Positions 6,094 to 59,998 of a DNA stretch of 64,000 nt are shown piece after piece. Each line of letters opens with the position of its first letter. Within the stretch, counting starts at the first letter, position 1. The DNA lies in contig CALXMV010000003.1 in the NCBI GenBank assembly GCA_944389565.1, forward strand, positions 15,416-79,415. The letters run 5' to 3'. Source of the DNA: an uncultured Kiritimatiellota bacterium (lineage in GTDB: Bacteria > Verrucomicrobiota > Kiritimatiellia > RFP12 > DVOR01). Both the position numbers and the translations under genes were made by a program. The notes under the pieces were generated by a model. That model made no database searches. It was not told the origin of the DNA and saw only the letters and a list, made by a program, of their open reading frames with translations.

Positions 6094-6117
6094 CCGCGTA
6101 CCGACACGACAGGGCGC

Positions 6118-6160
6118 ACGCGAAGCCCCCGCTCCCGCGGGGGCTTCGCGTATGTTTTCT
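6118..6160 (+). terminator. Probable intrinsic terminator after leuS
   Basis: acgcgaagcccccgc-tccc-gcgggggcttcgcgt stem followed by atgttttctt. Confidence 0.65.
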
Positions 6161-6321
6161 TGCCAGGCATTATGGGCATAAGCGCGGCAGGCCAAGCGTA
6201 TGGTGCCGCCCCCGTGCCGTCGCGTGCCGAGCCGGGAAACGCAGGGCTGTATTCCATGACGCACCCAAGCCCTCCCACGTCTTTGCGCTTGGGTGGCGAG
6301 GCCATGGCTGTGTTATACTGA

Positions 6322-11809: not shown

Positions 11810-13093
11810 TCACGGGAAGGCGAGCGGGCACGACTCGCACAGGATGCACGGATTGGCGCAGAAATCGGCATGGATCTGGAGAAGCCCCTGTTGGCGAAGC
11901 CCGTCCTTGGGAAGATGGGCGAGCCGACCGGTGAGCCTGAACCACGCGGCACGCATGGGCGCGGAGAGATCCTCGCCGGGCAGGTCGCGCAGGCGCGCGG
12001 GGTCAAGGGTGCCGATGGCGAGGCGGTAGGGGGTGAAGAGATTGGTGACGACGGCATGGGCACGGTTGGCGCCGATGGGCGCGCCTCGGAGGCCAAGCGG
12101 CTCGCAGAGCCGTTTGGAGGCTTGGATGAGCGCGCGGGGGAGTTCGCCAAGGGGGCATTCCAGGAGCGCGGCGAGGTCGTGCAGGATGCCGATGGCGCCG
12201 GCGAGGCGGCGGCGTGGGTGATTCTGGGGGCGCATGGCGCGGAAGTCCCACGCGTAGGGCTCGGTGGCGGGGGGGAGGCCGGTGCGCCACCAGAGGTCCC
12301 AGAGGTCACGGCGGTCCTCGCGCAGGAGGCCGCCGATGCCGGCGAGGGCGGCGTAGCGTTGCAGGGAGGGGAAGGGGGAGACGACGGCGAAGGGGACGTC
12401 GTGGGCGAGTCTGCGGAAGGGGGCGGCGTTGCGGCGATAGCCCATCGTGGCGAGAAGCGCCTCGTAGAAAGCCTGGAGGGGGTCTCCATCGCCCAAGGCC
12501 TGCGCGAAGAGGCGGGTCTTGGCAAGGAGCCGATAGTGGCCGGCGGCGGCGAGGAGACGGTCGCGGGCGACGGGGTCGGCACCCAAGCGGCCATGGCAGG
12601 GACGTTCGGGGGCGGTGGCGGCGGGGTCGAGCGCGGCGAAATCAATGGCGCCGGCGGCCTCGGCAAAGGGACGGAGTGCGAGCGTGGGGACGCCGCGCGG
12701 AAGGGTCTTGGCGGGAGGATCCGGGCTCCAGGCGACGTGCAGGATCAGGCCGGCATAGGCAGGGTCGCCGGCATGGCGATGGGCGTCCCAGTCGGCGGGG
12801 CGGAGATGGAGCTCGACGTCGCCCCGGCGGGGGATCTCGCCGAACAGGATGAGCGCGTCGCGGAAGTCAGGCCCCTCGACGGCGTTCCAATGGCCGGGAT
12901 CGAGCACCCGCAGGGGCGTCCCGTCCGGCAGGGCGAGCGGGAGGTCGCGCACGGCGGCGCTCTGCCAATAGGCCTGCAGGCGCCGTTCGCGGCTGGGCTC
13001 CGCCTCGCGCAACGTGAGGGAGTCCGCGCCGCGAAGAAGCCGGGCGTACGGCTCGGCCAACGCGGCGAGGGCATCGAGCGCGGAGGCGGCCAT
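11810..13093 (-). CDS. DUF2851 family protein
   Basis: LQAYW...VLDPGHWNAVEGPDFRDALI...GDVELH...WDAHRHAGDPAY...ILHV, RPQNHPRRRL, QGLLQI...C..C..C; ATG overlaps the corA stop (TGATG). Confidence 0.8.
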   Translation of the reverse strand: MAASALDALAALAEPYARLLRGADSLTLREAEPSRERRLQAYWQSAAVRDLPLALPDGTPLRVLDPGHWNAVEGPDFRDALILFGEIPRRGDVELHLRPADWDAHRHAGDPAYAGLILHVAWSPDPPAKTLPRGVPTLALRPFAEAAGAIDFAALDPAATAPERPCHGRLGADPVARDRLLAAAGHYRLLAKTRLFAQALGDGDPLQAFYEALLATMGYRRNAAPFRRLAHDVPFAVVSPFPSLQRYAALAGIGGLLREDRRDLWDLWWRTGLPPATEPYAWDFRAMRPQNHPRRRLAGAIGILHDLAALLECPLGELPRALIQASKRLCEPLGLRGAPIGANRAHAVVTNLFTPYRLAIGTLDPARLRDLPGEDLSAPMRAAWFRLTGRLAHLPKDGLRQQGLLQIHADFCANPCILCESCPLAFP

Positions 13094-22007: not shown

Positions 22008-22038
22008 GTTTGTTATACTGTGGGGGAAAGGGCTGATT

Positions 22039-33632: not shown

Positions 33633-34534
33633 GACAAGTCCTTGAGTTGCGCGGGGGTGATGGTGTAGCACTTGCCGCACATATGGCAATAGATGTCGAT
33701 CGGGCGGTTCTCGGCGATCATGGCGAGGCGTTCGGCGCGCGGCAGGCCGCGGAGCATGGCGACCACCTTGTCCGCGGTGCAGTCGCAACGAAAGCGCACG
33801 GGCCACTGCTCGAGCTCCTCCGGCTCGCCCAGCCCGAGCAGCCGTCCCAACGCGGCTAGGTCGGCGCCCGCGTCGAGCGCGTCCTGCACGGTCCCGCTGT
33901 CGAAGGCGGCGTTCAGGCGGCCAAGCGCCTCCGTCGCGTCGGCGCCGAACGCATGGCGGCAGCGCAACGCGTGCGCGCACTCCACGTAGCCCAGTTTGCT
34001 CGCGGCGGAGATCTGCGCGATGGATTCCGTGGCGTCATCCCCGAGCCCCCATGCGTCGAAACACGCCTCGAAGATGTCGGTCACGGTGAGATGGTCCTTG
34101 AAGGAGACTTCGCCGGGCAGGAAGGCCATATGGTGTTCGCCATGCCAGATATCGAGGGCGTAACGCGCGACACGCCCCAGCGCGCGGTCGAAAAGGTCGT
34201 CGCACGGGGCGTCGGAGTCGTCGAGCTCCGGGAGCACCTTGCGCAGGGTGTAGCCGCGGATCGAGAAGTCCCCCCGGCATTCCATGACGACCCCCTGGAT
34301 CTGCCCCTCGGGGAACTCGACGCGCAGCACCGCCCGCTCCCCCTCCTCCTGGACATCCTCGGCCAAGAGCGCCATCCCGCCCACGAACTCGGCCTGCACA
34401 AGCCCCGCGATGGGGCCGCACAGATGATTCCGCTCCAACGCGCGGGCGGTGTCGGTGACGTTGGCCAGGACCAAGGTCGCCTGCGCCTCCGGGAACCGCG
34501 CCCGGCACACACGGTCAAGCGACGACACGTTCAT
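33629..34534 (-). CDS. hslO: Hsp33 family redox chaperone
   Basis: HLCGPIA, IRGY, C-terminal RFRCDC...YCHMCGKCY zinc motif. Confidence 0.8.
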   Translation of the reverse strand: MNVSSLDRVCRARFPEAQATLVLANVTDTARALERNHLCGPIAGLVQAEFVGGMALLAEDVQEEGERAVLRVEFPEGQIQGVVMECRGDFSIRGYTLRKVLPELDDSDAPCDDLFDRALGRVARYALDIWHGEHHMAFLPGEVSFKDHLTVTDIFEACFDAWGLGDDATESIAQISAASKLGYVECAHALRCRHAFGADATEALGRLNAAFDSGTVQDALDAGADLAALGRLLGLGEPEELEQWPVRFRCDCTADKVVAMLRGLPRAERLAMIAENRPIDIYCHMCGKCYTITPAQLKDLS

Positions 34535-40329: not shown

Positions 40330-42561
40330 TCAGGCGAGAAAAACGGCGTCGATGTCCACGAGCGTCCGAACCGCCGGCGTGACGCGCGTCTCCAAGGGGA
40401 ACGCCTCGTCGCACGCGGCGACAAGCGCCTTGGAGGTGGGGGCCTTGAGCAGGATCTGCCACCGCCAGAGATCCTCCTTGCGCTCCAAAGGCGCGGGCAT
40501 GGGCGGCAGACGCTCGACGCCCGGCATGGCGGCGAGCCGTCGGTCGGCGGCCTCCGCGGCACGTTGCACGGCGGCCGCGTCGCCCCCCGTGAAGGTCACG
40601 CAGGCCAAGCGGCGGAAGGGCGGGAGCCCCGCGGCCTCGCGCTCGGCGAGCTCGTCGGCGGCGAACCGTTCGTAATCGCAGGCGCAGGCGGTGCGGATGG
40701 CCGGATGGTCGGGTTGCAGGGTCTGCACGATGACCTCGCCGGGGATCGCGCCGCGGCCGGCGCGGCCGGAGACCTGCGCGATGAGCTGGAAGGTGCGCTC
40801 GGCGGCGCGGAAGTCGTAGGGCACGTTGAGCGAGCGGTCGGCGGCGAGGATGCCCACGAGGGTGACGTTCGGGAAGTCAAGCCCCTTGGCGATCATCTGC
40901 GTGCCCAGGAGGATGTCGGCCTCCTTGGCGCGAAAGGCGGCGAGGAGCTCGTCGTGGCTGTGGCGGCGCCCAGTGCTGTCGGCGTCCATGCGGATGACGC
41001 GCGCCTGGGGCAGGATCTTGGCGAGGACGGCCTCCACGCGCTGGGTGCCGAAGCCAAGCGGCTTGAAGATCGGCGCGCCGCAGGCGGGGCACCGATCGGG
41101 CGGCCGGCGCCACCACCCGCAGAGATGGCACCGCAGGGTGTCGTCCTTCGCGTGGTAGGTGAGCCGCGCCGAGCAATGCGGGCAGGCGACGGGCGCGCCG
41201 CATTGGGCGCATTGGTAGGTGGTGGCGTAGCCGCGTCGGTTCAGGAAAAGGATGGCCTGCTCGCCGCGTTCCAGCCGCGTGCGGAGCGCCGCGAGCAACG
41301 GCTCGCTGAAGAGCGGCACGCCCTCGCCGGGGCGCGCGGCCTCGCGCAGGTCGATGCACGCGACGGAGGGCAGTCGCGCCCCGCCCACGCGCTCGGGCAG
41401 CCGCGCCAGCCGATACTTGCCCAAGACGGTGGCGTTGCGCCAGCTCTCCAGCGAGGGCGTGGCGGAGCCCAGCACGCACCGCGCCCCCTCGATATGCGCC
41501 CGCATGACGGCCACGTCTCGCGCGGAGTAACGCGGCGACTCATCCTGCTTGTACCCGCCGTCGTGCTCCTCGTCCACGATGATCAGCCCCAGCCGGCGGA
41601 CGGGCGCGAAGACGGCCGAGCGCGGCCCGACGACGACCCGCGCCTCGCCCCTGCGGATGCGATGCCACTCATCATGCCGCTCGCCATCGCCCAAGGCCGA
41701 ATGCAGCACGGCGACGGCCCCCCCGAAGCGCGCGGCGAAGCGATTCACGGTCTGCGGGGTGAGGGCGATCTCCGGCACCAGCACGATCGCGTCGCGCCCC
41801 TCCTCCAGGGTCGCGGCGATGGCCTGCATGTAGATCTCCGTCTTGCCCGAGCCGGTGACGCCGAAGAGCAACGTGGGCCGGTCGGCCCCGAGGATGACCC
41901 GGAGCGCCTCGGCCTGCGCGGGCGTGAGCGGCATGGGCCGGGTGGGCAGGATCCGCCGCCCGGCAAGCGGGTTGCGCGGCGCCTCGCGCTTCTCGCACCG
42001 CACATACCCCAGCGCCGCGAGCCTACGGAGCGTGGCGGGCGTGGTGGAGAACTCCTCGCAAAGCCGCGCCAAAAGCCCGCCGTCGACACGGACAAGATCC
42101 TCGTAAAGCGCCTTCTGACGTTTGGAGAGCGGCGGCAGATGCGGGGGCGGCGGCAGGATGGGCGTGACGACGAAACGCTCGCGCGCCCCGCACCCTCCCT
42201 CGCGCACCGGCGCCGGCAACGCGCTCCGCAAGGCCAGCGTGAAACCCACCGAATAATATCCCGCCAGCCACCGCAGCAACCTCAGCGTCCCTTCCGAGAA
42301 ATACGGCAGCGGATCCTCCACGGCCAAAAGCGCCCTGACCCCCGGCACCGGCGTGGCGACGCCGAAAAGATCGGGCTCCCCCACGCGCCCCGCTTTGGGC
42401 ACGTAAGGGCACCGCTCGCTCAGCGCCACCACATACCCCCGATGGCAGACCCGCCGCCACGGCGCCGTGACCCGCTGCCCCACCCGCACCTCCATCCCCT
42501 CCGGGACGGCATACGTGAACAGGCGGTTCGGCACTTTCTCGATGGCGACCTGGGCGTACAT
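40330..42561 (-). CDS. priA: Primosomal protein N'
   Basis: GVTGSGKTEIY, LVPEIALTPQ, DEEHD, YKQ, CxxC zinc cluster, GTQMIAKGLDFP, QVSGRAGR. Confidence 0.95.
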   Translation of the reverse strand: MYAQVAIEKVPNRLFTYAVPEGMEVRVGQRVTAPWRRVCHRGYVVALSERCPYVPKAGRVGEPDLFGVATPVPGVRALLAVEDPLPYFSEGTLRLLRWLAGYYSVGFTLALRSALPAPVREGGCGARERFVVTPILPPPPHLPPLSKRQKALYEDLVRVDGGLLARLCEEFSTTPATLRRLAALGYVRCEKREAPRNPLAGRRILPTRPMPLTPAQAEALRVILGADRPTLLFGVTGSGKTEIYMQAIAATLEEGRDAIVLVPEIALTPQTVNRFAARFGGAVAVLHSALGDGERHDEWHRIRRGEARVVVGPRSAVFAPVRRLGLIIVDEEHDGGYKQDESPRYSARDVAVMRAHIEGARCVLGSATPSLESWRNATVLGKYRLARLPERVGGARLPSVACIDLREAARPGEGVPLFSEPLLAALRTRLERGEQAILFLNRRGYATTYQCAQCGAPVACPHCSARLTYHAKDDTLRCHLCGWWRRPPDRCPACGAPIFKPLGFGTQRVEAVLAKILPQARVIRMDADSTGRRHSHDELLAAFRAKEADILLGTQMIAKGLDFPNVTLVGILAADRSLNVPYDFRAAERTFQLIAQVSGRAGRGAIPGEVIVQTLQPDHPAIRTACACDYERFAADELAEREAAGLPPFRRLACVTFTGGDAAAVQRAAEAADRRLAAMPGVERLPPMPAPLERKEDLWRWQILLKAPTSKALVAACDEAFPLETRVTPAVRTLVDIDAVFLA

Positions 42562-48586: not shown

Positions 48587-49792
48587 TCAATGAATTGGCA
48601 TCGTTCTCAGAAGCAAACACGCGAGATCTTTCGCTTTGCCCGTCATGAATGAACGGCGCACACCAAGCCGTACCCCCATCGCTTCCGCAAGCAGGTCACG
48701 ATGACTTTCGCATTGCACGTAATTGTACTGCACTAAGGGATAATTCGATTTTTCCGTTCCACGAAAGAACGCCCAGAGCGTGCGCATCGTATGATAAAGT
48801 CGCTTAAGCCAATCCCGCAAAGACGGACGATGGCCGTCCACCGGATAAAAGCCAAGGTTATGCTCATACAATGAATGGTATAAATCAATAGCGACAGTCT
48901 GCCACGCGCCTCGATAACATGCCTCGTCGTCCAAAACATCCTGCAACGCGGCAAGATATGCGTCCGCGACCTCAGAGCGTTCAATCTTGTCAATCCGAAC
49001 TCCGCCCCCCTCTTCCACAATTCGAACAGGCACGACCTCGCTGAGCAAACTGCCGTCCGATGCGAAAGAGAGATGAACGGTCAAAGACCAAAGCGTATTG
49101 GCGGACTTTCCCCATCTCGCGGGATCTACAAGGAAATTCCCCAACCCATAATAAATCCGCCCATGCTTATAAGTTTCCCATCCCTGCGGAACATGTGCGT
49201 GATGCCCATGAACGACATCCGCCCCCGAATCAATCAAGGCTCGATACCACGCCCGCGCTTCCGGCGTTGGGATGGGGGACATCTCCACCGCGGCATGCAC
49301 CGAAACGATTACGGCATCCACACGCTTTCTCAGCTCACGAATGGCGTCAAACATCCATGCCCCCAAGGGGGCAATACCTGGCACGCCATCATCTGCCATC
49401 CCAAATTGGTGTTCGGCACACGCAAGAATTCCGATGCAACGCCCGGCCTCTTCCACGATGATGGGGGCACACGCACGTTTGGTCTCATCCCCCGCCCCAA
49501 CGACAGGGATGCCACGTGCGCCGCATCGCACCAAAGTCTCCTTCAACCCCTCCACGCCAAAATCCATCATGTGATTATTGGCCAAACAGAAAATCCAACG
49601 GGGGCCCTCCGCCACAAAACCATTCCACACGCGTGGGCCGGCTTTGCGTGGTGGCTCAGGGCAAGACCACTTGGCACGCTCCCCGATCCAAGGCCCCTCC
49701 AAATTACCCAACACCCACTCTCCGCCATTGAGCCAGGCGGGCAGAATCACATGATTTGTGAAACCGACATGGTCTCCCACCAAAAACATCAC
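48587..49792 (-). CDS. CapA/PgsA-family metallophosphoesterase-like protein
   Basis: VGD, GNLE, LANNHMMDFG, VSVH, GADVVHGHHAHVPQG, YGLGNF. Confidence 0.85.
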   Translation of the reverse strand: MMFLVGDHVGFTNHVILPAWLNGGEWVLGNLEGPWIGERAKWSCPEPPRKAGPRVWNGFVAEGPRWIFCLANNHMMDFGVEGLKETLVRCGARGIPVVGAGDETKRACAPIIVEEAGRCIGILACAEHQFGMADDGVPGIAPLGAWMFDAIRELRKRVDAVIVSVHAAVEMSPIPTPEARAWYRALIDSGADVVHGHHAHVPQGWETYKHGRIYYGLGNFLVDPARWGKSANTLWSLTVHLSFASDGSLLSEVVPVRIVEEGGGVRIDKIERSEVADAYLAALQDVLDDEACYRGAWQTVAIDLYHSLYEHNLGFYPVDGHRPSLRDWLKRLYHTMRTLWAFFRGTEKSNYPLVQYNYVQCESHRDLLAEAMGVRLGVRRSFMTGKAKDLACLLLRTMPIH

Positions 49793-50826
49793 ACCCCTCC
49801 CAGACGTTTAGACAAATCCAGAACCCGCTCCGCAAAAACCGCCCGACCGAATTTCGACGCACAAGCCACGGAAGCACGCTGGGCCTGGTCAAAGCGTAGG
49901 CTGTCCCATCCCATCAATGTCCGCATGGCATTCGCAATCGAACCGACACGCATAGGATTGAAGGATAAACCATTCGCCTTTGTCAGGAAATCCGGCGAAG
50001 CCCCAATCCGGTCACTCAAAAGCAAGGCACATCCAGAGAGCGCAGCCTCATGCACCACGACCCCCCAATGCTCCTCACGGCTAGCCAAGACAAAAGCCTT
50101 CGCGGCCTGATATTTTTCGGACAGCTCGACCGGTTGCAGGAAATCATTCACCACGATTCTTGGATGACACGGGATCCGATTCCGCAAAGGGCCTCTGCCA
50201 CAAAACTCCAATGTCCACGTCGGATACTCATCGGCCACGCGAAGAAAGGCCTCTGCAACTGCCAACACATTTTTGCGCTCGTTCAATTGCCCTACGCATA
50301 AAATAACATTCCTGCGCTCCCCCATTGGCTTTCGACAGCCAAATGTCGTGTCATCCCCTGAGTAAAACCCCTTCACGATGCGTTCTTTCGGCACGCCAAA
50401 GAAACGCAACAGACGCGTCCCACTTGCCCCTGGCACAAAAAACGCGTCAAACATTCCACGTTGCATCAATCGAAAACGCGCTGCCCGTGCCACATTCCTC
50501 CATGTCAACTCCCAATTGTTGTCCACGCAACACACCACAGGGCGCCCTGCCTTCCGGGCCTCCCTGCAAAACCTATTGAAAATTGGCTCATTCCAACCCG
50601 ACGTGAAAACAACTCCATATTTCGTCCCACATAAATCCTCCAACGTACATGTCTCTGAGGGCTTAACCCAGACAATCCGCCCGCCGAACATATTCTCAAT
50701 CCCCTCATAGGGGAATGAAGACCTGATTGCAACAATCGTCACGGCCGCATATCGCTTCCGTAACGCCTCCAACGCCTGTACCCCATATGCCGTCAGACCA
50801 TTCCAGAAAAAAAGAATCTCGCGCAT
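49789..50826 (-). CDS. Glycosyltransferase family 4
   Basis: CVGQLNERKN, FVLASREEHWGVVVHEAALSG. Confidence 0.87.
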   Translation of the reverse strand: MREILFFWNGLTAYGVQALEALRKRYAAVTIVAIRSSFPYEGIENMFGGRIVWVKPSETCTLEDLCGTKYGVVFTSGWNEPIFNRFCREARKAGRPVVCCVDNNWELTWRNVARAARFRLMQRGMFDAFFVPGASGTRLLRFFGVPKERIVKGFYSGDDTTFGCRKPMGERRNVILCVGQLNERKNVLAVAEAFLRVADEYPTWTLEFCGRGPLRNRIPCHPRIVVNDFLQPVELSEKYQAAKAFVLASREEHWGVVVHEAALSGCALLLSDRIGASPDFLTKANGLSFNPMRVGSIANAMRTLMGWDSLRFDQAQRASVACASKFGRAVFAERVLDLSKRLGGV

Positions 50827-51623: not shown

Positions 51624-52645
51624 GAGCGACCTATCCCCAAAACTTCACGTATGGCAAGATCCGAGCAATCATGGGCGAGCTGGAGCTGACGCCAATGCGG
51701 CGTGATGCCTTTATAACCGCGCATCTGGCAGATTAGGCAAAGCACCCGCCACAGCAAGGGGACATGAAGGAATGCGTAGAGCAGACGTTTCCCCCAGAGC
51801 ACGCGCCATCCGAGGCAACGATGATAGGATTCTCCCCGCTTGCGCCAGACATAGGTGTCCGCGAAGGCGTGCCACAGACGGAATCGGCCGGAGGCGACCT
51901 CCCCGTATTTGCGCACCCATGGATTGCCGCACACGTAGTGCACCACGGGGCGTTCGGCAAGTTTTTCGTCGGTCAGGAAAATCTGCAGGCGGTCGAACTT
52001 CTGTGGGGCAAAGGCCTTGTGTCCATGGAAGACGACATTCATGGCCGTCTGGTCCGGGAGCGCGACGTCCGGATAATCCTTGAAGAACTGCTGAATCCGC
52101 TCGGGGATTTTGTCTTCACGGCATTTCTTGAAATTGAAAAGCATGACCCCGGAATTGAAATACTCCGAGTCCGGGATTGTCACCCCGCACCGCCGCGCGG
52201 CCCACTCGCACTCCCCCCGCCGGCAACGTTCGGATTCCTCTTGGACGACCACCGCGTAGGCATTTGCGTCACGATAGGAGAAATGCTCCTCGACGGAGGC
52301 CAGATAGAGCACGTCGCAATCCAAATAGAGGCACCAATCCACATCCTTCAGGATATACGGGAAGAAGCACCGCACACTGGCCATGCGCGACCCGGCCCAG
52401 TAAGGCAGCCCGGCGAGGATGGTCTCATCGCACACGTGCTGCTCCACGACCCCATTCGGGTGAAGTCGTGACAGGACCTCCCTCGCCTCCTCCATCGTCT
52501 CTTGGCGGACATCCTCCGTGAACACATGAAAATGCAAAGGCGTCTCCCGCCGTGCGAAAGCCGCCACCCCGGCCAACGCCACGAGAGCCCCTGGCATATA
52601 CCTCTCATTCGCCGCGACCGCTACGTGAAAAGTCTCTTGCGCCAT
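51620..52645 (-). CDS. Glycosyltransferase family 8
   Basis: LYLDCD, YFNSGVMLFN, PDQTAMN, VVHY..GNPW. Confidence 0.88.
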   Translation of the reverse strand: MAQETFHVAVAANERYMPGALVALAGVAAFARRETPLHFHVFTEDVRQETMEEAREVLSRLHPNGVVEQHVCDETILAGLPYWAGSRMASVRCFFPYILKDVDWCLYLDCDVLYLASVEEHFSYRDANAYAVVVQEESERCRRGECEWAARRCGVTIPDSEYFNSGVMLFNFKKCREDKIPERIQQFFKDYPDVALPDQTAMNVVFHGHKAFAPQKFDRLQIFLTDEKLAERPVVHYVCGNPWVRKYGEVASGRFRLWHAFADTYVWRKRGESYHRCLGWRVLWGKRLLYAFLHVPLLWRVLCLICQMRGYKGITPHWRQLQLAHDCSDLAIREVLGIGRS

Positions 52646-53630
52646 TATTTTTGCTCCTCGACCACGCCTTCAGGCGGACACACCGCCCAACGAACCATTG
52701 GCTGACAGTATACCAAGGCGTCGCCCAAAAAAGCAAGGCCGTTGTGCGGAATGCGATGGTCGTGCCATGTGTCCCCCAAGCCATGCGCAAAAGCGCCCAC
52801 CTCCACCGGCGATACCACGCCACCCGCGTCTGCCGGTCAGACAAACGCGCCATCCACCCCATCTGGCCCAGTGCCAAAACCTTCTCGCAATTGCGCAAGA
52901 CGTCCCGTGCGACCGGTCGTGCCCCAGAAACGTACAGGCCAAGAATCGCGCTCCAAGCACCCCATTCGCTTTGCAACCGCGCCACCGAGACAGACGATGT
53001 CGTGGCGGAGCCTTCCCGTCGCCGATACCAATAAAGCGGTATCTCCGCCAAAACAACCCGCCGTGCACGACAAAACCACATCGTCATGAACAGCACATCC
53101 TCGGAATGCGTGAACGGGCGAAACCGGATTGCTCCCCCTCGCGGCATCCGATAGGCGAATTCCCAAAAGCTGTGCCGAGCCAACGCCAATGAGATCCCAT
53201 CCTCGGCATTGATGACACGCACGCCCCCAAGACGAGGAATCGTCTTCCCCACGTCCTCCCATGTCTCTCCCATCCGAAAGGCGATCATGTCCGCGTCCGG
53301 GCACCGAGCGTCCAACTCCCGGATCGTCGCCAACCACGTAGGCGCAACCGCATCGTCGCCATCGAGAAAAAGCAACCACCGTCCCCGAACACGCCCCAAC
53401 GCCCGATTTCTGGCGGCCGCCACCCCCGCATTTCGTTGATGGATGACATGGAAGCGCCCATCCCCCCGCACCGCCTCGTCCAAATAACCTCCCCCGCCAT
53501 CCGCGCTCCCATCATCCACGCACCAACACTCCCACAGGTCATAAGTTTGCCGTGCCACGGACCGCAACGCCTCATGGATGTACGCCCGAACCATGTACAC
53601 GGGGACGACAATCGAAAAATCAGGGGGCAT
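52605..53630 (-). CDS. Glycosyltransferase family 2 (first gene of the leftward operon)
   Basis: FSIVVPVY, CVDDGS, HQRNAGVAAARN, FLDGDD; AAGGAG/GGAG RBS directly outside cassette 1. Confidence 0.87.
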   Translation of the reverse strand: MPPDFSIVVPVYMVRAYIHEALRSVARQTYDLWECWCVDDGSADGGGGYLDEAVRGDGRFHVIHQRNAGVAAARNRALGRVRGRWLLFLDGDDAVAPTWLATIRELDARCPDADMIAFRMGETWEDVGKTIPRLGGVRVINAEDGISLALARHSFWEFAYRMPRGGAIRFRPFTHSEDVLFMTMWFCRARRVVLAEIPLYWYRRREGSATTSSVSVARLQSEWGAWSAILGLYVSGARPVARDVLRNCEKVLALGQMGWMARLSDRQTRVAWYRRWRWALLRMAWGTHGTTIAFRTTALLFWATPWYTVSQWFVGRCVRLKAWSRSKNNGARDFSRSGRGE

Positions 53631-53651
53631 AGCTTCTCCGAGACTCCTTTG

Positions 53652-53752
53652 GGCGTTTAGACGGACGTTTAAACGCACTACCCCGGGAATCGGATTTGCT
53701 ATACTTTGTGCGTTTGTTTTCACCCGTGCGTTTAAACGTCCGTTTAAACGCC
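53652..53752 (+). promoter_or_regulatory. Putative invertible promoter cassette 1 (core GA/TC), promoter currently facing right
   Basis: 27-bp inverted repeats 53652-53678 / 53726-53752 (1 mismatch) enclosing TGCTATACT at 53697-53705. Confidence 0.8.
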
Positions 53753-53781
53753 GCACCTGCGTCACAGAAAGGGCGTCAGCC

Positions 53782-54936
53782 ATGTCGAGCCAATCTTTGC
53801 GGATTCCTCCCGCGGAGGAACTGATTTCCACGATTCTTCAGGTACGGGAGTGCCTGCGCACGGCTGACCCGGAAGACGTTGGGGCCCCTCGTGACTTTCC
53901 CATCCCCGATCCGCCCAAGGCGCCACCGCTCGTCAGCGTCGAGGTTTTGGTCTATAACCAAGCCCGTACCCTGCGCCATTGCGTCGAGAGCATTGTGGCA
54001 CAAAAGACCGACTTCCCATTTGAGATCATCATCGGCAACGATTGCAGCACCGACGATTCATTGGACGTGGCCCGCGCCCTACAACGTGAGCATCCTGACA
54101 AAATCCGCATTCTTTCCACGCGCCGGAACGTCGGGCTCAACCGTAACGCTCGGAATGTCCGCCGCGCCATGCGCGGGACGTTCGCGGCATTTTGCGAGGG
54201 GGACGACTGGTGGCTCACCGAGACACGCCTGCAAGGACAGGTCGACCTCCTTCGCGCGCACCCGGAAGTCTCGCTCGTGCATGGATACACGCGGTTCTAC
54301 GACGAAGCCTCGGGGGCGCTCACGGAGAACGCCTTGCGATTCCGCCTGCCACCGAACCGCTTCGCGAGAATCCTTGATGAGACCTATCGTGTCGAGACCG
54401 CCGGGGTTGTCTGCCGTGTGAGGGATCTCTTGCGGATCTACGACGAGTGCCCGCATCTCATCGACGCGCGTTTCCGCATGCTCGACACGCAACTCTTCTG
54501 CCTGCTTGCCTCATGGGGTGATGTCGTCTGCCTTCCCCACCCCGTTTCGGTCCGCCGCTATTCGGGCCATTCGCTAAGCCGCAACGGGGATCTCGCCAAG
54601 AGTCTGACCTACCACGACAACGCCTTCGCCATGATGCTCACGCTCTGCGACCATTTCCGCCAAGGCCCAAGGGCACGGGCACGTATCGCCAACCACTATC
54701 TGTCGAGCGCCTACCAAGCGCTATGCAAGGTCTTCACAAGGCGCGAGGCCTCTCACGTCCTCCGTACGCTCTATCCAGAGTTCAAATTGAGAATTGGGTT
54801 ATTGCGGCTTTTTCCGGAACCGCGTAACCGCCTGCTCCGAAAGCTCTTCTATCATTTTCTCTTTCCGGTCGCCAAATACAGGCATAGTTTCAAGAGTGAG
54901 CCCGTGCCCACCACACGCGTAGCTTTTGGCGGTTGA
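53782..54936 (+). CDS. Glycosyltransferase family 2
   Basis: LVSVEVLVYNQ, QKTDFPFEIIIGNDCSTD, AFCEGDDWW...LQGQVDLL. Confidence 0.87.
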   Translation: MSSQSLRIPPAEELISTILQVRECLRTADPEDVGAPRDFPIPDPPKAPPLVSVEVLVYNQARTLRHCVESIVAQKTDFPFEIIIGNDCSTDDSLDVARALQREHPDKIRILSTRRNVGLNRNARNVRRAMRGTFAAFCEGDDWWLTETRLQGQVDLLRAHPEVSLVHGYTRFYDEASGALTENALRFRLPPNRFARILDETYRVETAGVVCRVRDLLRIYDECPHLIDARFRMLDTQLFCLLASWGDVVCLPHPVSVRRYSGHSLSRNGDLAKSLTYHDNAFAMMLTLCDHFRQGPRARARIANHYLSSAYQALCKVFTRREASHVLRTLYPEFKLRIGLLRLFPEPRNRLLRKLFYHFLFPVAKYRHSFKSEPVPTTRVAFGG

Positions 54937-55921
54937 TTCGCCGTTTGACCCAATAAGGCATCACACACAGAATCCAGGCCACCCACGGCCGCCGGAAACG
55001 CGTCAGCACCCGTAACGCCATGCGTTGCCACGGGGAGAACGTTGCGTCGATATGCGCAATCGCGTCCAATGCCACCAACCAGCGTCTCCATAAGGCCTCA
55101 CGACGGACCTGGCCCATAATCTCCGATGCGATGCGCTCCACCACGCCACCATACAGCATTCGCACGAACGATGCGTCCCGCGCCAGCGGCGTGCCCATAA
55201 TCGCGACGAACGCGGCCTCGCCAAACGCGATTCCGTCCGCGACACGCTTCTCCGTAACGGCACTTCGCATCGCCGAGCCTTGACGCAAGCGTAACCCATA
55301 CGGCTTCCACGCCTGAATCGCCGCCACGCGCATCCGGACGATGGCCCGTATCAAAAACAGCAAATCCTCCCCGTATCTCAGCGTGACGTCAAAACGCAAC
55401 CCATCAAGCAACCCACGGCGGTAAGCCACCTCACAGAATGCTCCATACATGGCACGATGATCCGCCGGAGCGCCATCCGCGCCAAGTGTCACAAAGCGTT
55501 GCCCAAGCGGGACCGGACAAGACGGGAAACACACACCATGCTCATCCCCCACGGTCGCCCGAAAAAGAACGGCATCCAAATCCCGCGGGGCGGTCTCGAT
55601 CGTCCGCGCGACCTCCCGCAACAGATGCGGATGAAAGAGGTCATCCCCGTCCAAGAAAAGCACCCACTCGCCACGTATCCGCGCCAACGCCCGATTCCGT
55701 GCCGCCGAGACGCCCCGATTGGGTTGGTGAACAGCCCGAAAACGCGCATCCGCACGCACGGCAGAATCCACGATTTCGTCCAACCCATCCCCGCTCCCAT
55801 CATCGACGCAAACGCACTCCCAACGGAATTCCGATTGCGCCAAAACCGAGGCCAAACACTCTTGAAGATACGCGCGCACACGGTAACAGGGGACAACGAT
55901 CGAAAACATTCGCCGAGACAC
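54890..55921 (-). CDS. Glycosyltransferase family 2
   Basis: FSIVVPCY, CVDDGS, HQPNRGVSAARN, FLDGDD, YGEDLLF; GGAGG RBS. Confidence 0.87.
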   Translation of the reverse strand: MSRRMFSIVVPCYRVRAYLQECLASVLAQSEFRWECVCVDDGSGDGLDEIVDSAVRADARFRAVHQPNRGVSAARNRALARIRGEWVLFLDGDDLFHPHLLREVARTIETAPRDLDAVLFRATVGDEHGVCFPSCPVPLGQRFVTLGADGAPADHRAMYGAFCEVAYRRGLLDGLRFDVTLRYGEDLLFLIRAIVRMRVAAIQAWKPYGLRLRQGSAMRSAVTEKRVADGIAFGEAAFVAIMGTPLARDASFVRMLYGGVVERIASEIMGQVRREALWRRWLVALDAIAHIDATFSPWQRMALRVLTRFRRPWVAWILCVMPYWVKRRINRQKLRVWWARAHS

Positions 55922-55935
55922 GAATCAACCCTCCG

Positions 55936-56044
55936 ATGGTGCGTTTAAACGACCGTCTAAACGCATCAGTGAAACGATGACGAGAAGTATAGCAAAACCG
56001 TGTGACGGGGGTAGTGCGTTTAGACGGTCGTTTAAACGCACCAT
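55936..56044 (-). promoter_or_regulatory. Putative invertible promoter cassette 2 (core AC/GT), promoter currently facing left
   Basis: Perfect 30-bp inverted repeats 55936-55965 / 56015-56044 enclosing TGCTATACT on the minus strand at 55986-55994. Confidence 0.82.
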
Positions 56045-56070
56045 TTGTTTGTATCGCTGTCTGCAAGCCA

Positions 56071-57063
56071 ATGATTTACGATTGTTTCACCTTCTTCAAC
56101 GAACTCGACTTGCTCGAAATCCGCCTGAACATTCTCAAGGACGTCGTGGATCGCTTCATCGTCGTGGAGGCGACACAGACTCATCAAGGGGCGCCCAAGC
56201 CCCTCTTGCTTCAGGAAAACATCGCCCGTTTCGCACCGTTCAAAGGCAAACTCATTCACGTCATCGCCGACAATCCACCCTCCTCATCAGGTGCGCCGCG
56301 TGACGCGAATGGCAACAACTGGGTGATCGAGAATTGGCAACGTGCCAAAATCGACGAAGCATTGCAAAATTGTCAGGACGATGATGTCATCATCGTCTCG
56401 GATCTCGATGAGATTCCACGACCGGAGGCCATCCTGCGCAACCACCCCCGTCCCGGCATCACGACCCTCTGCGTGGACAACTACAATTTCTTCCTCGACT
56501 TCCGAAGTTCCGAGCCGCCCTTCCCCGTCATCAAAATGGTGCGCTACGATTATTATCGGGACGTACTCCCGCGATTGCCCTTCCCTGAGAACCAAAAATT
56601 CCGTTTTTTGCCTTGTTACTGGGGAACCTCAAACCCAAACAAACTCCGTGCCATGGACGGGAATCGCCTCATCCCCCACGGAGGCTGGCACTTTTCCTAT
56701 CTGGGTGGTCTTGAGCGCGTCCTGAAAAAACGCCAATCCATCGTCGAGCAACAGTACAATGACGCGGAGACGACCACGGCGCAATGGGTGTCACGGCGGA
56801 TCCGACAAGGTCGCGACATCTATCGCCGCGGGTATCTTTTCTATCCCACGGCACGCTCCCTACCGAACTTCTTGCGCCGTAACCGGAAACGCTACGACCA
56901 TCTCTTCTGGCACCCCTCCGCCCCTTGGGAGAGATCGCTCCTCACGATGCGTTTCATGCTGTTACGTCTCTGCAATCACGCTGTCCGATTTGGGCGACGC
57001 ACCAAACTTCTCACCCCGTTTGAACGACTCATCCCCATCATAAAGCGACTGATTACCCGATGA
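56071..57063 (+). CDS. Glycosyltransferase family 17 (beta-1,4-GlcNAc-transferase-like)
   Basis: MIYDCFTFFNELDLLEIRL, FIVVEA..THQG.PKPL, ENWQR, IIVSDLDEIP, GGWHFSYLGG. Confidence 0.85.
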   Translation: MIYDCFTFFNELDLLEIRLNILKDVVDRFIVVEATQTHQGAPKPLLLQENIARFAPFKGKLIHVIADNPPSSSGAPRDANGNNWVIENWQRAKIDEALQNCQDDDVIIVSDLDEIPRPEAILRNHPRPGITTLCVDNYNFFLDFRSSEPPFPVIKMVRYDYYRDVLPRLPFPENQKFRFLPCYWGTSNPNKLRAMDGNRLIPHGGWHFSYLGGLERVLKKRQSIVEQQYNDAETTTAQWVSRRIRQGRDIYRRGYLFYPTARSLPNFLRRNRKRYDHLFWHPSAPWERSLLTMRFMLLRLCNHAVRFGRRTKLLTPFERLIPIIKRLITR

Positions 57064-57067
57064 AACC

Positions 57068-58252
57068 TCAATCCCTCAAAGAAAGGTTCTCGCGGAGCCA
57101 AGAGAGGGATGAGGCGCGAGCGGCGGAGAGGGCGGGAAGATCGTAGGTGATTGGGGCGGCAAGGGATGCAAGGGCGGAGAGGAGGTCGGGGGCGATGAGG
57201 GGACCTGAAGTATAACGGGCGGCGAATTCCTCGATGCGAGCGAACATCCCTTGGCGAGCGGTTGTGTCGGGACGGAGGATACGGACGTTTTTACCAAAGA
57301 TGGAAGCAAACATCAACGCGTGGAAGGAGTCGGACACAATCCAGTCGGCTTGGGCGAAATCTTGGAGGAACTCGCGTGGGCCTGCATCATTTCGGACGCG
57401 AACGGAAGAGAACCCAGTACGCAGACGGAACCAGAGGTGCTTCATCAAAGGACGAGGAGCCAAGCGGACGGCGTAGGCACCGTCACGTAGGACGTGGATG
57501 TCGCAATCGTTCCGCTTGGCGAATGCTTCGAGCAAGGGCCAGACGCGTTTGAGATCGACGGAGAGGAAATAACAGACGAGACGTCTGCGCCTCGGGGGAG
57601 AAGGGGGTGTCCGTCCAAATGCGAGCATACGCCAAGCATCAGCGGGGACAAGTTGGGTGGGATCGAGCACATGGGTGGCTTTGGCGCCGACGGAGGCCGC
57701 GAGGGTTACCCCCTCGGCTTCGCGGACGGAAATCGCGGCGAATCGGCGCAGGCCCTCGCGGAAACGCACGACCCAGTCGAGTGGGATAGCGCGTATCCCG
57801 AAACTGGCAGCGTAAGCGATGGCATGTAACCCTTGCGGCGCACCTTCGAGGAGATAGACGCTGGGGTCACCCCAGTCGCCACAGTGCCATACTTGATCGC
57901 TCCCGATGACAAGACCGTCCAAGCCTAGGTCTTTCCCCGCCACGTCCGGCCATTCATGAAAGTGGTAAGGCGTGAGACGCATGGTCTCACGCACGAAGCG
58001 CATGGTGCGCCAATGGCGAACGGTTCGTGCCCATTGGCCGCACCCGAAGCACGCGTGGATCAGAAACGAGCCCCACGCTTTGAGGGACATTCGCGCAAAA
58101 GGCCCGCGTAGCGTGACGTTACGCGAATCAATCCAACGGTCAACCACAGAGACATCGTGCCCCAACATACGCAAGGCCTGTTGCCCAGCCCAAGCCTGTA
58201 ACACGCCTCCATAATTCAACTGGGAATGGGTGGTCAGTACACCAACTCTCAT
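57068..58252 (-). CDS. Polysaccharide pyruvyl transferase family protein
   Basis: NYGGVLQAWA, IGSDQVW, AYAASFG, ISVRE, VLDPT, VSDSFHALMFASIF. Confidence 0.88.
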   Translation of the reverse strand: MRVGVLTTHSQLNYGGVLQAWAGQQALRMLGHDVSVVDRWIDSRNVTLRGPFARMSLKAWGSFLIHACFGCGQWARTVRHWRTMRFVRETMRLTPYHFHEWPDVAGKDLGLDGLVIGSDQVWHCGDWGDPSVYLLEGAPQGLHAIAYAASFGIRAIPLDWVVRFREGLRRFAAISVREAEGVTLAASVGAKATHVLDPTQLVPADAWRMLAFGRTPPSPPRRRRLVCYFLSVDLKRVWPLLEAFAKRNDCDIHVLRDGAYAVRLAPRPLMKHLWFRLRTGFSSVRVRNDAGPREFLQDFAQADWIVSDSFHALMFASIFGKNVRILRPDTTARQGMFARIEEFAARYTSGPLIAPDLLSALASLAAPITYDLPALSAARASSLSWLRENLSLRD

Positions 58253-58320
58253 GCCGCGACCCTCCATTGTACGCACGGTGAAAACGTCAGAATGGCAATA
58301 CGCATCGCAAAAACCAAGTG

Positions 58321-58423
58321 CGGCGTTTAAACGTACGTCTAAACGCCCCACCCTTCGCGGACGGATTTGCTATACTTTACGCACTGTTTTCACCCGTGCG
58401 TTTAGACGTACGTTTAAACGCCG
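58321..58423 (+). promoter_or_regulatory. Putative invertible promoter cassette 3 (core TA), promoter currently facing right
   Basis: Perfect 26-bp inverted repeats 58321-58346 / 58398-58423 enclosing TGCTATACT at 58368-58376. Confidence 0.82.
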
Positions 58424-58435
58424 GGGAAAGGGAGG

Positions 58436-59998
58436 ATGATGACGGAGAATCGGCGGATATTCTGGAATGTGGTGGCGACTTACGGGCGGTCGTTGTTCAC
58501 GATGGGGTGCGGGCTTTTCACGAGCCGTTGGGTGTTGATGACATTGGGGGAGGTGGATTATGGGCTCTATGGGGTGGTGGGTGGGCTGACGGTGTGCATC
58601 GGCTTCCTGAACGGGTTGCTCTCGAACGCGGTGGGGCGGTTTTACGCATTCTCGGTGGGGCAGGCGCGGGTGGCGGGGACGCAGGGCGAAGGCTTGGAGG
58701 TGTGCCGGCAATGGTTCAACAGCGCGTTGGCGATCCATTGCGTGGTGCCATTGGCCTTGATGGCGGTGGGGTACCCCATCGGGGAGCACGCGGTGAGGGC
58801 GTGGCTGACAATCCCGCCGGAACGCGTGGAGGCATGCGTGTGGGTCTTCCGGATTGTGTGCGTGACAAGTCTGGTGGGGATGATGAGCGTGCCGTTCCGC
58901 GCGATGTACGAGGCAAAGCAATATATCGCGGAGTTGACGATTTACAGTTTCGTGACGGCGACGTTGAATGTGTGCGTGCTTTATTACATGGTGTCGCACC
59001 CGGGGGATTGGCTGACACGGTATGCGCTGTGGACGGCGGTGTTGGCCATCGCGCCGATGGTGATCATCGCGGTGAGGGCGGTGTTCATCTTCCCGGAATT
59101 GCGGTTTCGACCGGCGTATCTGTGGGATTGGCGACGGACACGGGCGCTCGTGTATTTCGCGGGCGCGGAGTTCTTCGGATGCCTGGGGGTGCTCTTGCGG
59201 GGACAGGGGGTGATGATCGTGGTGAACAAGTATTTCGGCCCGGCGACGAACGCGGCGATGACGGTGGCGACGTCGGTGAGCAACCACTGCAACACGCTGA
59301 ACGCGTGCCTGCAGGGGGCGTTTTTGCCGGCGATCACGAACGCGTGCGGCGCGCGCGATTATGGGCGGATGCTCGCGCTCACCTACCGCACGTGCACGAT
59401 CGGCTCGCTCTTGGTGCTGCTTTTCGCGTTGCCGTTGGCGTTGGAAATCGACGAGGTGCTGCGGTTATGGCTGAAGCATCCGCCGGAATATGCCGCAGGG
59501 CTGAGTCTCCTCATGTTGGCGACGCTGGTGGTCGATCGCTTGGGGCGCGGGAGTATGCTCGCGCTGAATGCGAACGGCAAGGTGATGGCGTACCAGTTGG
59601 TTTCGGGGACACTTTTGATCCTGACCTTCCCGGCAGCGTGGCTCTTCGTGGCGCTTGGGTTCGGGGTGTATTCAATCGGGTGGGCGTTCGTGATTTTCAT
59701 CGCGGCGCACATCCTGAGCGCGATCTGGTTCGCGCGGAAACTTGTGCGCTTCTCGTTTCGCCACTGGGTCAGGAGCACGGTGTTGCCGATCGCCATGCTG
59801 ACGGCGATTTGCGGCGCGGCGGGGACGTTGCCGAGACTGTGGATGGAGCCGTCTCTGTGGCGCGTGGCGATGACGACGCTGTGTTGCGAGGCGATTTTAT
59901 TGCCGCTGGCGTGGGGCTTGGTGCTCACTCCCGAGGAACGCGCGTTCGTGCGTGAGAAACTCCGCCAAGCATTGGGACGCTTGGCGAAAAAGGAATGA
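58436..59998 (+). CDS. Wzx/MATE-like oligosaccharide flippase
   Basis: NRRIFWN...TSRWVLMTLGEVDYGLYGVVGG; many TM segments; GGAGG RBS. Confidence 0.85.
   Translation: MMTENRRIFWNVVATYGRSLFTMGCGLFTSRWVLMTLGEVDYGLYGVVGGLTVCIGFLNGLLSNAVGRFYAFSVGQARVAGTQGEGLEVCRQWFNSALAIHCVVPLALMAVGYPIGEHAVRAWLTIPPERVEACVWVFRIVCVTSLVGMMSVPFRAMYEAKQYIAELTIYSFVTATLNVCVLYYMVSHPGDWLTRYALWTAVLAIAPMVIIAVRAVFIFPELRFRPAYLWDWRRTRALVYFAGAEFFGCLGVLLRGQGVMIVVNKYFGPATNAAMTVATSVSNHCNTLNACLQGAFLPAITNACGARDYGRMLALTYRTCTIGSLLVLLFALPLALEIDEVLRLWLKHPPEYAAGLSLLMLATLVVDRLGRGSMLALNANGKVMAYQLVSGTLLILTFPAAWLFVALGFGVYSIGWAFVIFIAAHILSAIWFARKLVRFSFRHWVRSTVLPIAMLTAICGAAGTLPRLWMEPSLWRVAMTTLCCEAILLPLAWGLVLTPEERAFVREKLRQALGRLAKKE

Follow-up and report, generated by a model that had tools for sequence, protein, structure and literature searches.

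What is the role of three short cassettes, each about 100 bp long, that lie between divergent glycan genes in a 64-kb stretch of DNA (hereafter the window, 64,000 nucleotides in all) from an uncultured Kiritimatiellota bacterium? Each cassette holds a promoter motif between two palindromic sites, and each is flanked by two genes that start just outside it and point away from it. A first-pass annotation, made from the letters of the window, had proposed that the cassettes are promoters that flip and thereby choose between the two neighbouring genes. Following up this proposal, we consider it likely that each cassette is a miniature invertible promoter (inverton) of the Mpi type that works in two directions.

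Anatomy of the cassettes and their promoters

All three cassettes are built to the same design, in which a 24-bp site, GCGTTTARACG-NN-CGTYTAAACGC, is followed by about 50 bp containing TTGCTATACT and then by the reverse complement of the site. Each end of a cassette is a palindromic site of the 11-2-11 form, i.e. two 11-bp half-sites around a 2-bp core, as is implicit in the consensus given by the first-pass annotation. Against an expectation of 0.09, the window contains 12 exact copies of the half-site motif CGTYTARACG, all of them inside the three cassettes; shuffling the window 100 times gave two matches at most. That the cassettes are bounded by inverted repeats, as the first-pass annotation had described, is confirmed by these counts and by a repeat scan, which returned arms of 27, 30 and 26 nt (Table 1). 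The site centres are exactly 75 bp apart in cassettes 1, 2 and 3, again as described earlier, both by the start-to-start distances of the repeat scan and after recomputing the centres, and the DNA between the repeats is 47-51 bp long. When cassette 2 is aligned as its reverse complement, the three cassettes have a mean column identity of 84% over their full length. The left and right sites of a cassette are mutual inverted repeats even at the asymmetric A/G position of the half-sites and at the central dinucleotide, which reads (left/right) GA/TC in cassette 1, AC/GT in cassette 2 and TA/TA in cassette 3. In the source genome (2.26 Mb, 68% GC, 72 contigs, about 95% complete), full sites are found six times in the window cassettes and three times on another contig, C41, and nowhere else.

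The interior of each cassette contains one copy of the extended -10 motif TTGCTATACT, on the plus, minus and plus strand of cassettes 1, 2 and 3, respectively, in agreement with the earlier description of two rightward promoters and one leftward promoter. In all three cassettes the centre of the -10 hexamer is 0.5-1.5 nt off the midpoint between the site centres, so that a flip would reverse the direction of the promoter almost in place. With up to one mismatch, TTGCTATACT has seven matches in the window against 0.27 expected. One match of this type (at most one mismatch) is located 35 nt upstream of rpsU (S21), which bears out the earlier remark that the promoter type of the cassettes is also used before this gene. 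The genome contains 78 copies of the pattern TTGNTATAMT, where about two would be expected by chance as estimated from base composition. Of these 78, 43 are outside crude gene calls that span 84% of the DNA, and 25 lie no more than 200 nt upstream of a gene on the same strand. A scan for classical -35/-10 promoters returned none in the cassettes, and the promoter call therefore rests on the extended -10 motif class. Many TTGNTATAMT motifs end 7-10 nt before a start codon (e.g. 22010-22019, with an open reading frame (ORF) at 22020), and these motif-to-start distances suggest that leaderless mRNAs may be frequent in the host.

According to Pfam, the divergent neighbours are two GT2 glycosyltransferases at cassette 1, a GT2 and a GT17 enzyme at cassette 2, and a polysaccharide pyruvyl transferase and a 520-aa membrane protein at cassette 3. 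Their start codons are located 12-53 bp outside the repeats, and no further promoter-like motif was found between these starts and the repeats. As a result, the single promoter of a cassette should drive one gene of its pair, and expression of the two flanking genes would be either/or.

Two other features of the cassettes are worth recording. Most cassettes, in this genome and in the sister species described below, share a block TTGTTT(T)CAC some 10-20 nt past the -10 element (e.g. 53715-53727 and 58385-58397; alignment A3); the block may be a signal in the 5' untranslated region or a site for an accessory protein. At cassette 2, the right site and its T-rich tail (56014-56051) resemble the hairpin of an intrinsic terminator for rightward transcription. 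The two states of this cassette need not, therefore, be equally strong, and the hairpin could weaken expression of the GT17 gene after a flip.

Orientation in public runs and in sister species

The window locus is contained in 14 public runs from six studies, the top four of which are labelled chicken gut metagenome. We examined runs X3, X4, X5 and X14, all as Logan assembled contigs, whose records of exactly 31 nt suggest k=31. In X14, record 4 (2655 nt, depth 57.5) aligns with 58398-58678 on the minus strand, with 58347-58397 on the plus strand and with 58266-58346 on the minus strand. The 51-bp interior of cassette 3 is inverted in this contig while both flanks are collinear with the window, the joints being ambiguous across the 26-nt repeat. 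Cassette 3 is crossed in the reference orientation by record 21 of X4 and record 25 of X5. In X3, whose contigs are all at least 99% like the window, record 11 ends at 58350, record 12 consists of 58321-58423 (103 nt), and record 13 restarts at 58398 with four unaligned letters. Such a break pattern is what an assembly graph would be expected to give if both orientations of cassette 3 were present and the repeat (26 nt) were shorter than k-1.

Other observations were made in these runs. At cassette 1 of X14, one extra T follows 53716, and the spacing becomes 76 bp. Crossings of cassette 2 in X3 and X4, and breaks there in X5 and X14, are uninformative for orientation and were not used, and the same is true of an uncovered stretch, 53613-53665, in X4.

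Related cassettes are present in the genome itself and in sister species. A covariance model in which the two sites are paired (R1) found a fourth cassette at C6:36002-36114 (L002 4003-4115), 3 kb from one of the Mpi genes described below, and orthologous cassettes in G001, G006 and G003. The fourth cassette is placed between a pyruvyl-transferase-like gene and an ORF with a WcaF-like N-terminus (both named by eye). Its site centres stand 75 bp apart. As the inner half-sites are degenerate, the switch may be locked, and one flanking gene has its start codon within the left site. With a rebuilt model (R2), cassettes were found in 7 of the 27 other species of the genus, namely G001 (two), G003, G006 (three), G007, G008, G010 and G017, and in none of 113 genomes from other genera of the order (E<=0.001). 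Matches in G052, G024, G007 (C19:26795) and G028 are promoter-only and were rejected as cassettes; a further match, in G031, is weak (E 0.034). The exact site was not found in 60 relatives when one mismatch was allowed, and a search of 100 relatives for two such sites 75 bp apart, allowing two mismatches, had no match either. A collection of genome contigs contains no match to it, and a collection of metagenome contigs contains one lone, unrelated match (L019).

The design of the cassettes is kept in these species. Among seven cassettes, the arms pair in 88.7% of cells compared with 72.7% after shuffling, and none of 500 shuffles reached the observed value. Half of the arm pairs (12/24) have changed on both sides and are still complementary, and in all seven cassettes the left central dinucleotide is the complement of the right one. 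Script measurements of 12 cassettes gave a spacing of 73-77 bp (75 bp in five, 74 in one, 73 in five and 77 in one), and a thirteenth, from G008, was measured by hand at 73 bp. One arm is degenerate in each of G007b and G010c.

The cassettes of the relatives also lie between divergent glycan genes, either GT2 and GT17 or two pyruvyl transferases, and comparison of the locus across species places cassettes at orthologous positions in several of them. The G007 cassette is flanked by orthologues of genes C and D, the neighbours of cassette 2 (59% and 65% identity over the full length, respectively). Its promoter faces the GT17 gene, whereas that of cassette 2 in the window faces the GT2 gene, so that both states occur within the cassette 2 lineage. 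Cassettes of G001 and G006 adjoin orthologues of gene E (59% and 81%) and so match cassette 3, and the gene on their other arm differs. That different arm genes are found at the same switch across species indicates that arm genes have been exchanged, as in the strain of X14, where 1122 other letters replace 57136-58266 (gene E). In G010, two contig ends (L114 1-77, at the start of C16, and L119, at the end of C19) have the same 77-nt cassette in common, a pattern resembling an assembly break at a site of mixed orientation.

Shared sites, candidate recombinases and a proposed mechanism

A genome-wide search for more sites identified three full sites on contig C41, at 5642, 6320 and 12009. They are of the same type as those of the cassettes, all with central GG/CC, and are located inside 93-nt coding repeats (one mismatch), just past the part of a 248-aa ORF that encodes its signal peptide. 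At this locus (L001 4986-12030), inverted sites flank a segment with a promoter and a signal peptide (5664-6319), a third copy is found near 11930-12030, and two further gene bodies without promoters stand in opposite or like orientation. All three alternative gene bodies, of about 200-250 aa and with no match in Pfam, each precede a gene for a PEP-CTERM protein. By its sequence, the locus has the anatomy of a coding-sequence shufflon.

These sites bear on the suggestion that no recombination takes place and that the paired sites are operators for a dimeric repressor looping 75 bp over the promoter. Such operators could account for perfect palindromes on both sides of the promoter at a fixed spacing of about seven helical turns. 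We find this barely credible, since inversion bounded by the sites was observed in the X14 contig, and since left/right identity is kept at the asymmetric positions and at the central dinucleotide, where independent operators would not need it. Moreover, the same sites inside the coding repeats of the shufflon, where an operator makes no sense, are hard to reconcile with an operator function.

If the cassettes are invertons, which enzyme could flip them? Searching the genome with PF00239 returned two genes, at C6:39030-39653 and C5:74838-75431. Both encoded proteins combine the PF00239 domain with a C-terminal helix-turn-helix (HTH), and both pass the NCBIfam equivalog for Mpi-family master DNA invertases, NF009949, with 314.7 and 277.5 bits (cut-off 272). 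The two paralogues are 61% identical to each other and diverge most in the C-terminal HTH. Only two tyrosine recombinases (PF00589) were found, with XerC/XerD as best match below the cut-off, and no IS110/Piv-type recombinase was found in the genome. The flanks of the window cassettes encode glycan enzymes and no recombinase, while both serine recombinases are on C5 and C6, as anticipated in the first-pass annotation, which had called for a shared recombinase encoded elsewhere. A repeat scan near the Mpi genes gave background high-GC repeats only; the fourth cassette came later, from the model. Relatives of the Mpi proteins at 61-71% identity occur in Bacteroidales, Clostridia, Treponema, Akkermansia and others, and the best named match (88%) is from an uncultured Lentisphaeraceae bacterium. 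Within the genus, Mpi is present in 18 of the 27 other species, and cassettes were found in 7/18 Mpi-positive genomes and 0/9 Mpi-negative ones, an association that is weak because related genomes are not independent. A putative 10-letter consensus of the B. fragilis Mpi repeats was searched as paired patterns in five Bacteroidales genomes, none of them B. fragilis, with no match; it was set aside, and we make no claim of similarity between the present sites and the B. fragilis repeats.

We argue that a trans-acting serine invertase of the Mpi family would bind both sites of a cassette as dimers and synapse them across a very tight loop. Cleavage at the central dinucleotides, the probable position of the crossover, followed by rotation of the subunits, would flip the 75-bp segment, and the single promoter would then drive the left or the right gene depending on its orientation. 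The choice would be between two GT2 enzymes at cassette 1, between GT2 and GT17 at cassette 2, and between the pyruvyl transferase and the MATE-like membrane protein at cassette 3; together, the three switches could yield as many as 8 different sets of glycan-modifying enzymes. Once the segment has flipped, the transcript would run through the downstream palindrome. As the central dinucleotides of the three cassettes (GA, AC and TA) are not identical, they would be expected to keep neighbouring cassettes from recombining productively with each other. If protein covers 12 bp of each site, about 51 bp would have to bend by about 180 degrees, and the narrow range of spacings fits this bending constraint.

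A more far-reaching proposal is offered tentatively, with more doubt than conviction. The cassettes may be among the smallest natural site-specific inversion switches, characterized by a geometry of 73-77 bp, an unusual synapse, an address code in the central dinucleotides and exchangeable arms. Such a synapse would be unlike the classical invertasome, with two Mpi dimers holding about 50 bp bent by at least 180 degrees, perhaps with the help of an HU-like protein. The footprint of RNA polymerase would cover the whole switch, so that transcription and flipping would compete. The central dinucleotides, i.e. GA, AC and TA in the bank and GG in the shufflon, may serve as an address code against recombination between neighbouring switches. 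Likewise, the arms may be exchangeable slots for alternative glycan-modifying genes, as the genes found there differ between strains and species at the same switch.

Several points weigh against reading the cassettes as two-way switches operated by Mpi. The evidence from the runs comes from assembled contigs, not reads. The strain in X14 is about 2% diverged from the window, so cassette 3 could simply be fixed in the opposite orientation in that strain, and a mixture in X3 is deduced from break points at 4-6x depth. Cassette 1 is in the reference orientation in all three runs that resolve it (X3, X5 and X14), cassette 2 has a perfect repeat of 30 nt, equal to k-1, so that k=31 contigs do not reveal its orientation, and the fourth cassette and the G001 and G006 orthologues all face the same way. 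Of the earlier claim that the cassettes flip, what has been observed is the inversion of cassette 3 in X14 and the opposite state of the cassette 2 lineage in G007; cassette 1, seen in one orientation, would be expected to flip as well. With regard to either/or expression, none of the 14 runs is an RNA run, and the reverse strand of the -10 region could have weak divergent activity. A loop of 75 bp is physically demanding for a serine-recombinase synapse. Lastly, the proposed link between Mpi and the sites rests on co-occurrence and site architecture, and in five Bacteroidales genomes that encode relatives of Mpi the 14-nt core of the palindrome shows no enrichment (1 match against 0-6 control matches per genome).

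That cassette 1 and the fourth-cassette lineage are seen in one orientation only would also be expected of a mobile promoter element resembling a miniature inverted-repeat transposable element (MITE), which was inserted either way and is now essentially fixed, with the orientation differences as rare historical events. The homology of the ~100-bp units along their whole length, in four copies, would fit such an origin. We nevertheless regard it as very unlikely. The X14 contig inverts the interior alone between collinear flanks, and the breaks in X3 and the shared contig ends in G010 suggest mixtures within samples. Terminal repeats are present, but no target-site duplications were seen by eye at the ends of the three cassettes. 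In addition, cassettes occupy orthologous positions in several species with arms that have diverged yet are still complementary, and the same sites bound a coding shufflon. Operators and a MITE were the alternatives named in the first-pass annotation, and both fit poorly, given the inversion in X14 and the sites on C41.

The putative nature of the Mpi link and the lack of enrichment in the five Bacteroidales genomes would be accommodated if the cassettes are real invertons flipped by another agent and Mpi is unrelated to them. This agent could be a recombinase missing from the assembly, the Xer pair, or host recombination or replication slippage between the repeats. In favour of such an agent, the assembly is in 72 contigs and 95% complete, and the Mpi genes do not adjoin the window cassettes. 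We consider another agent unlikely, however, because an 11-2-11 site with a variable but matched central dinucleotide is the usage of serine recombinases, and because the Mpi genes are the only dedicated invertase candidates found. Cassettes in the genus were found only together with Mpi, subject to the non-independence of the genomes noted above, and one Mpi gene is close to the fourth cassette. We therefore retain Mpi as the candidate enzyme for inversion of the cassettes.

Flanking genes and comparison with known systems

The features of the window are summarized in Table 1. The earlier statement that the cassettes sit between divergent glycan genes was upheld by the Pfam assignments, with one reservation: the name flippase given to gene F is not established, as its MatE match is below the cut-off, and the protein is possibly a MOP-type flippase. 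Also in need of revision is the '8-gene operon' that had been placed under cassette 1. Its first gene, gene A, lies next to the cassette; farther along the leftward cluster, Pfam identifies GT8, GT25 and GT4 genes, a PGA_cap-like gene and others. A promoter-like TTGGTATACT precedes the start of the GT8 gene, so the seven downstream genes are probably independent of cassette 1 and only gene A, a GT2 enzyme, probably depends on it. Elsewhere in the genome, short segments of two further families are bounded by inverted arms that consist of tandemly repeated heptamers, (TGGTAAA)x4 and (GTGAATC)x3-4. Their interiors, about 105-130 bp or longer, are GC-rich and hairpin-rich, and no promoter motif was seen in them.

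Table 1. Positions of the cassettes, their promoters and flanking genes in the window, and of heptamer-arm segments on other contigs
Feature	Position	Strand	Remarks
Cassette 1	53653..53751	.	sites 53653-53676 (central GA) and 53728-53751 (central TC); promoter now rightward
Inverted repeat of cassette 1	53652-53678 / 53726-53752	.	96% complementary
TTGCTATACT promoter, cassette 1	53696..53705	+	motif match; hexamer centre 0.5 nt from cassette midpoint
Cassette 2	55941..56039	.	sites 55941-55964 (AC) and 56016-56039 (GT); perfect repeat reaches 55936-56044; promoter now leftward
Inverted repeat of cassette 2	55936-55965 / 56015-56044	.	100% complementary
TTGCTATACT promoter, cassette 2	55986..55995	-	motif match
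Cassette 3	58323..58421	.	sites 58323-58346 and 58398-58421 (both TA); reference promoter rightward
Inverted repeat of cassette 3	58321-58346 / 58398-58423	.	100% complementary
TTGCTATACT promoter, cassette 3	58367..58376	+	motif match
Gene A, GT2 glycosyltransferase	52605..53630	-	PF00535, 6.4e-28; first gene of leftward cluster; start 22 bp from cassette 1
Gene B, GT2 glycosyltransferase	53782..54936	+	PF00535, 5.3e-21
Gene C, GT2 glycosyltransferase	54890..55909	-	Pfam; 59% identity to G007 orthologue
Gene D, GT17-family glycosyltransferase	56071..57063	+	Pfam; 65% identity to G007 orthologue
Gene E, polysaccharide pyruvyl transferase	57068..58267	-	Pfam; 59% identity to G001 orthologue
Gene F, 520-aa membrane protein	58436..59998	+	weak MatE match, E 0.0037, below cut-off
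Internal promoter-like TTGGTATACT	52707..52716	-	62 nt upstream of GT8 gene start (52645); motif match only
Heptamer-arm segments	C16:31447-31603, 33966-34136, 42076-42246, 40399-40587; C63:2511-2677; C2:46393-47044, 49147-50516		

Gut Bacteroides are a textbook case of phase variation in capsule promoters. Here, the Mpi enzyme family would be used in a different phylum-level background and in a much more compact, two-way form, with one 75-bp unit choosing between two enzymes as opposed to toggling one operon. If confirmed, the cassettes would set a new lower bound for recombinase-mediated DNA looping in vivo and would provide a natural, very small and orthogonally addressable genetic toggle for synthetic biology. 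Inverton surveys may then miss elements as short as these. Fine-grained editing of glycans by alternative glycosyl and pyruvyl transferases would also become a phase-variable trait of an uncultured lineage of the chicken gut.

The crossover sites of Hin and Gin (Salmonella hin/hix and phage Mu gin/gix) consist of two inverted half-sites around a 2-bp core. The sites described here are similar in their 11-2-11 form, with a core that is identical in both partners and varies between switches, and in their A/T-rich half-sites that end in C/G beside the core; the candidate enzymes are likewise small serine recombinases with a C-terminal HTH. The invertible segments of Hin and Gin are about 1-3 kb long and carry the recombinase gene and an enhancer bound by Fis. 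In contrast, the 75-bp segment has no room for an enhancer, the recombinase would act in trans, and there are several independent switches.

In Campylobacter fetus, a single promoter on an invertible segment of the sap locus is placed between two opposed genes, one or the other of which is expressed. The same either/or logic is proposed here, but the sap segment is several kb long and reportedly depends on homologous recombination, whereas the present switch is a 75-bp site-specific one. The fimS element of E. coli is 314 bp long. As in fimS and the flagellar switch of C. difficile, a short promoter or regulatory segment between inverted repeats, imperfect in those two systems, would be flipped by a site-specific recombinase. 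The C. difficile switch is 154 bp long, has 21-bp repeats and is acted on by the tyrosine recombinase RecV (PMC5914908). Unlike the two-way switch proposed here, fimS and the flagellar switch are ON/OFF switches for one operon.

The closest comparison is with the Mpi capsule promoters of B. fragilis. In both cases a small Mpi-family invertase is encoded away from most of its (here putative) targets, several dispersed promoter segments with inverted repeats are found in surface-glycan loci (here four cassettes on two contigs), and combinatorial variation of the surface is the outcome, as predicted here for the window locus. The invertible units of Bacteroides Mpi are roughly 170-230 bp, compared with 75 bp between crossover centres and 47-51 bp between repeats in the cassettes. 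In B. fragilis, a single serine invertase acts on many promoters, with combinatorial states; 55 of 128 promoter states have been reported as observed, and the orientations as locked when mpi was deleted (bioRxiv 2022.10.31.514637). The present cassettes differ further in the type of promoter, a sigma-70 extended -10 motif as opposed to the -7/-33 type of Bacteroides, and in a host with 68% GC. Keyword searches of the open-access literature, the scope of which did not include supplementary catalogues, returned no description of an inverton below 100 bp or of a two-way inverton. Compared with the known Mpi promoters, the new features of the cassettes are their miniature size, the full palindromic sites at both ends, and a midpoint promoter with two-way logic between two divergent single genes, either/or in place of the ON/OFF control of one long operon.

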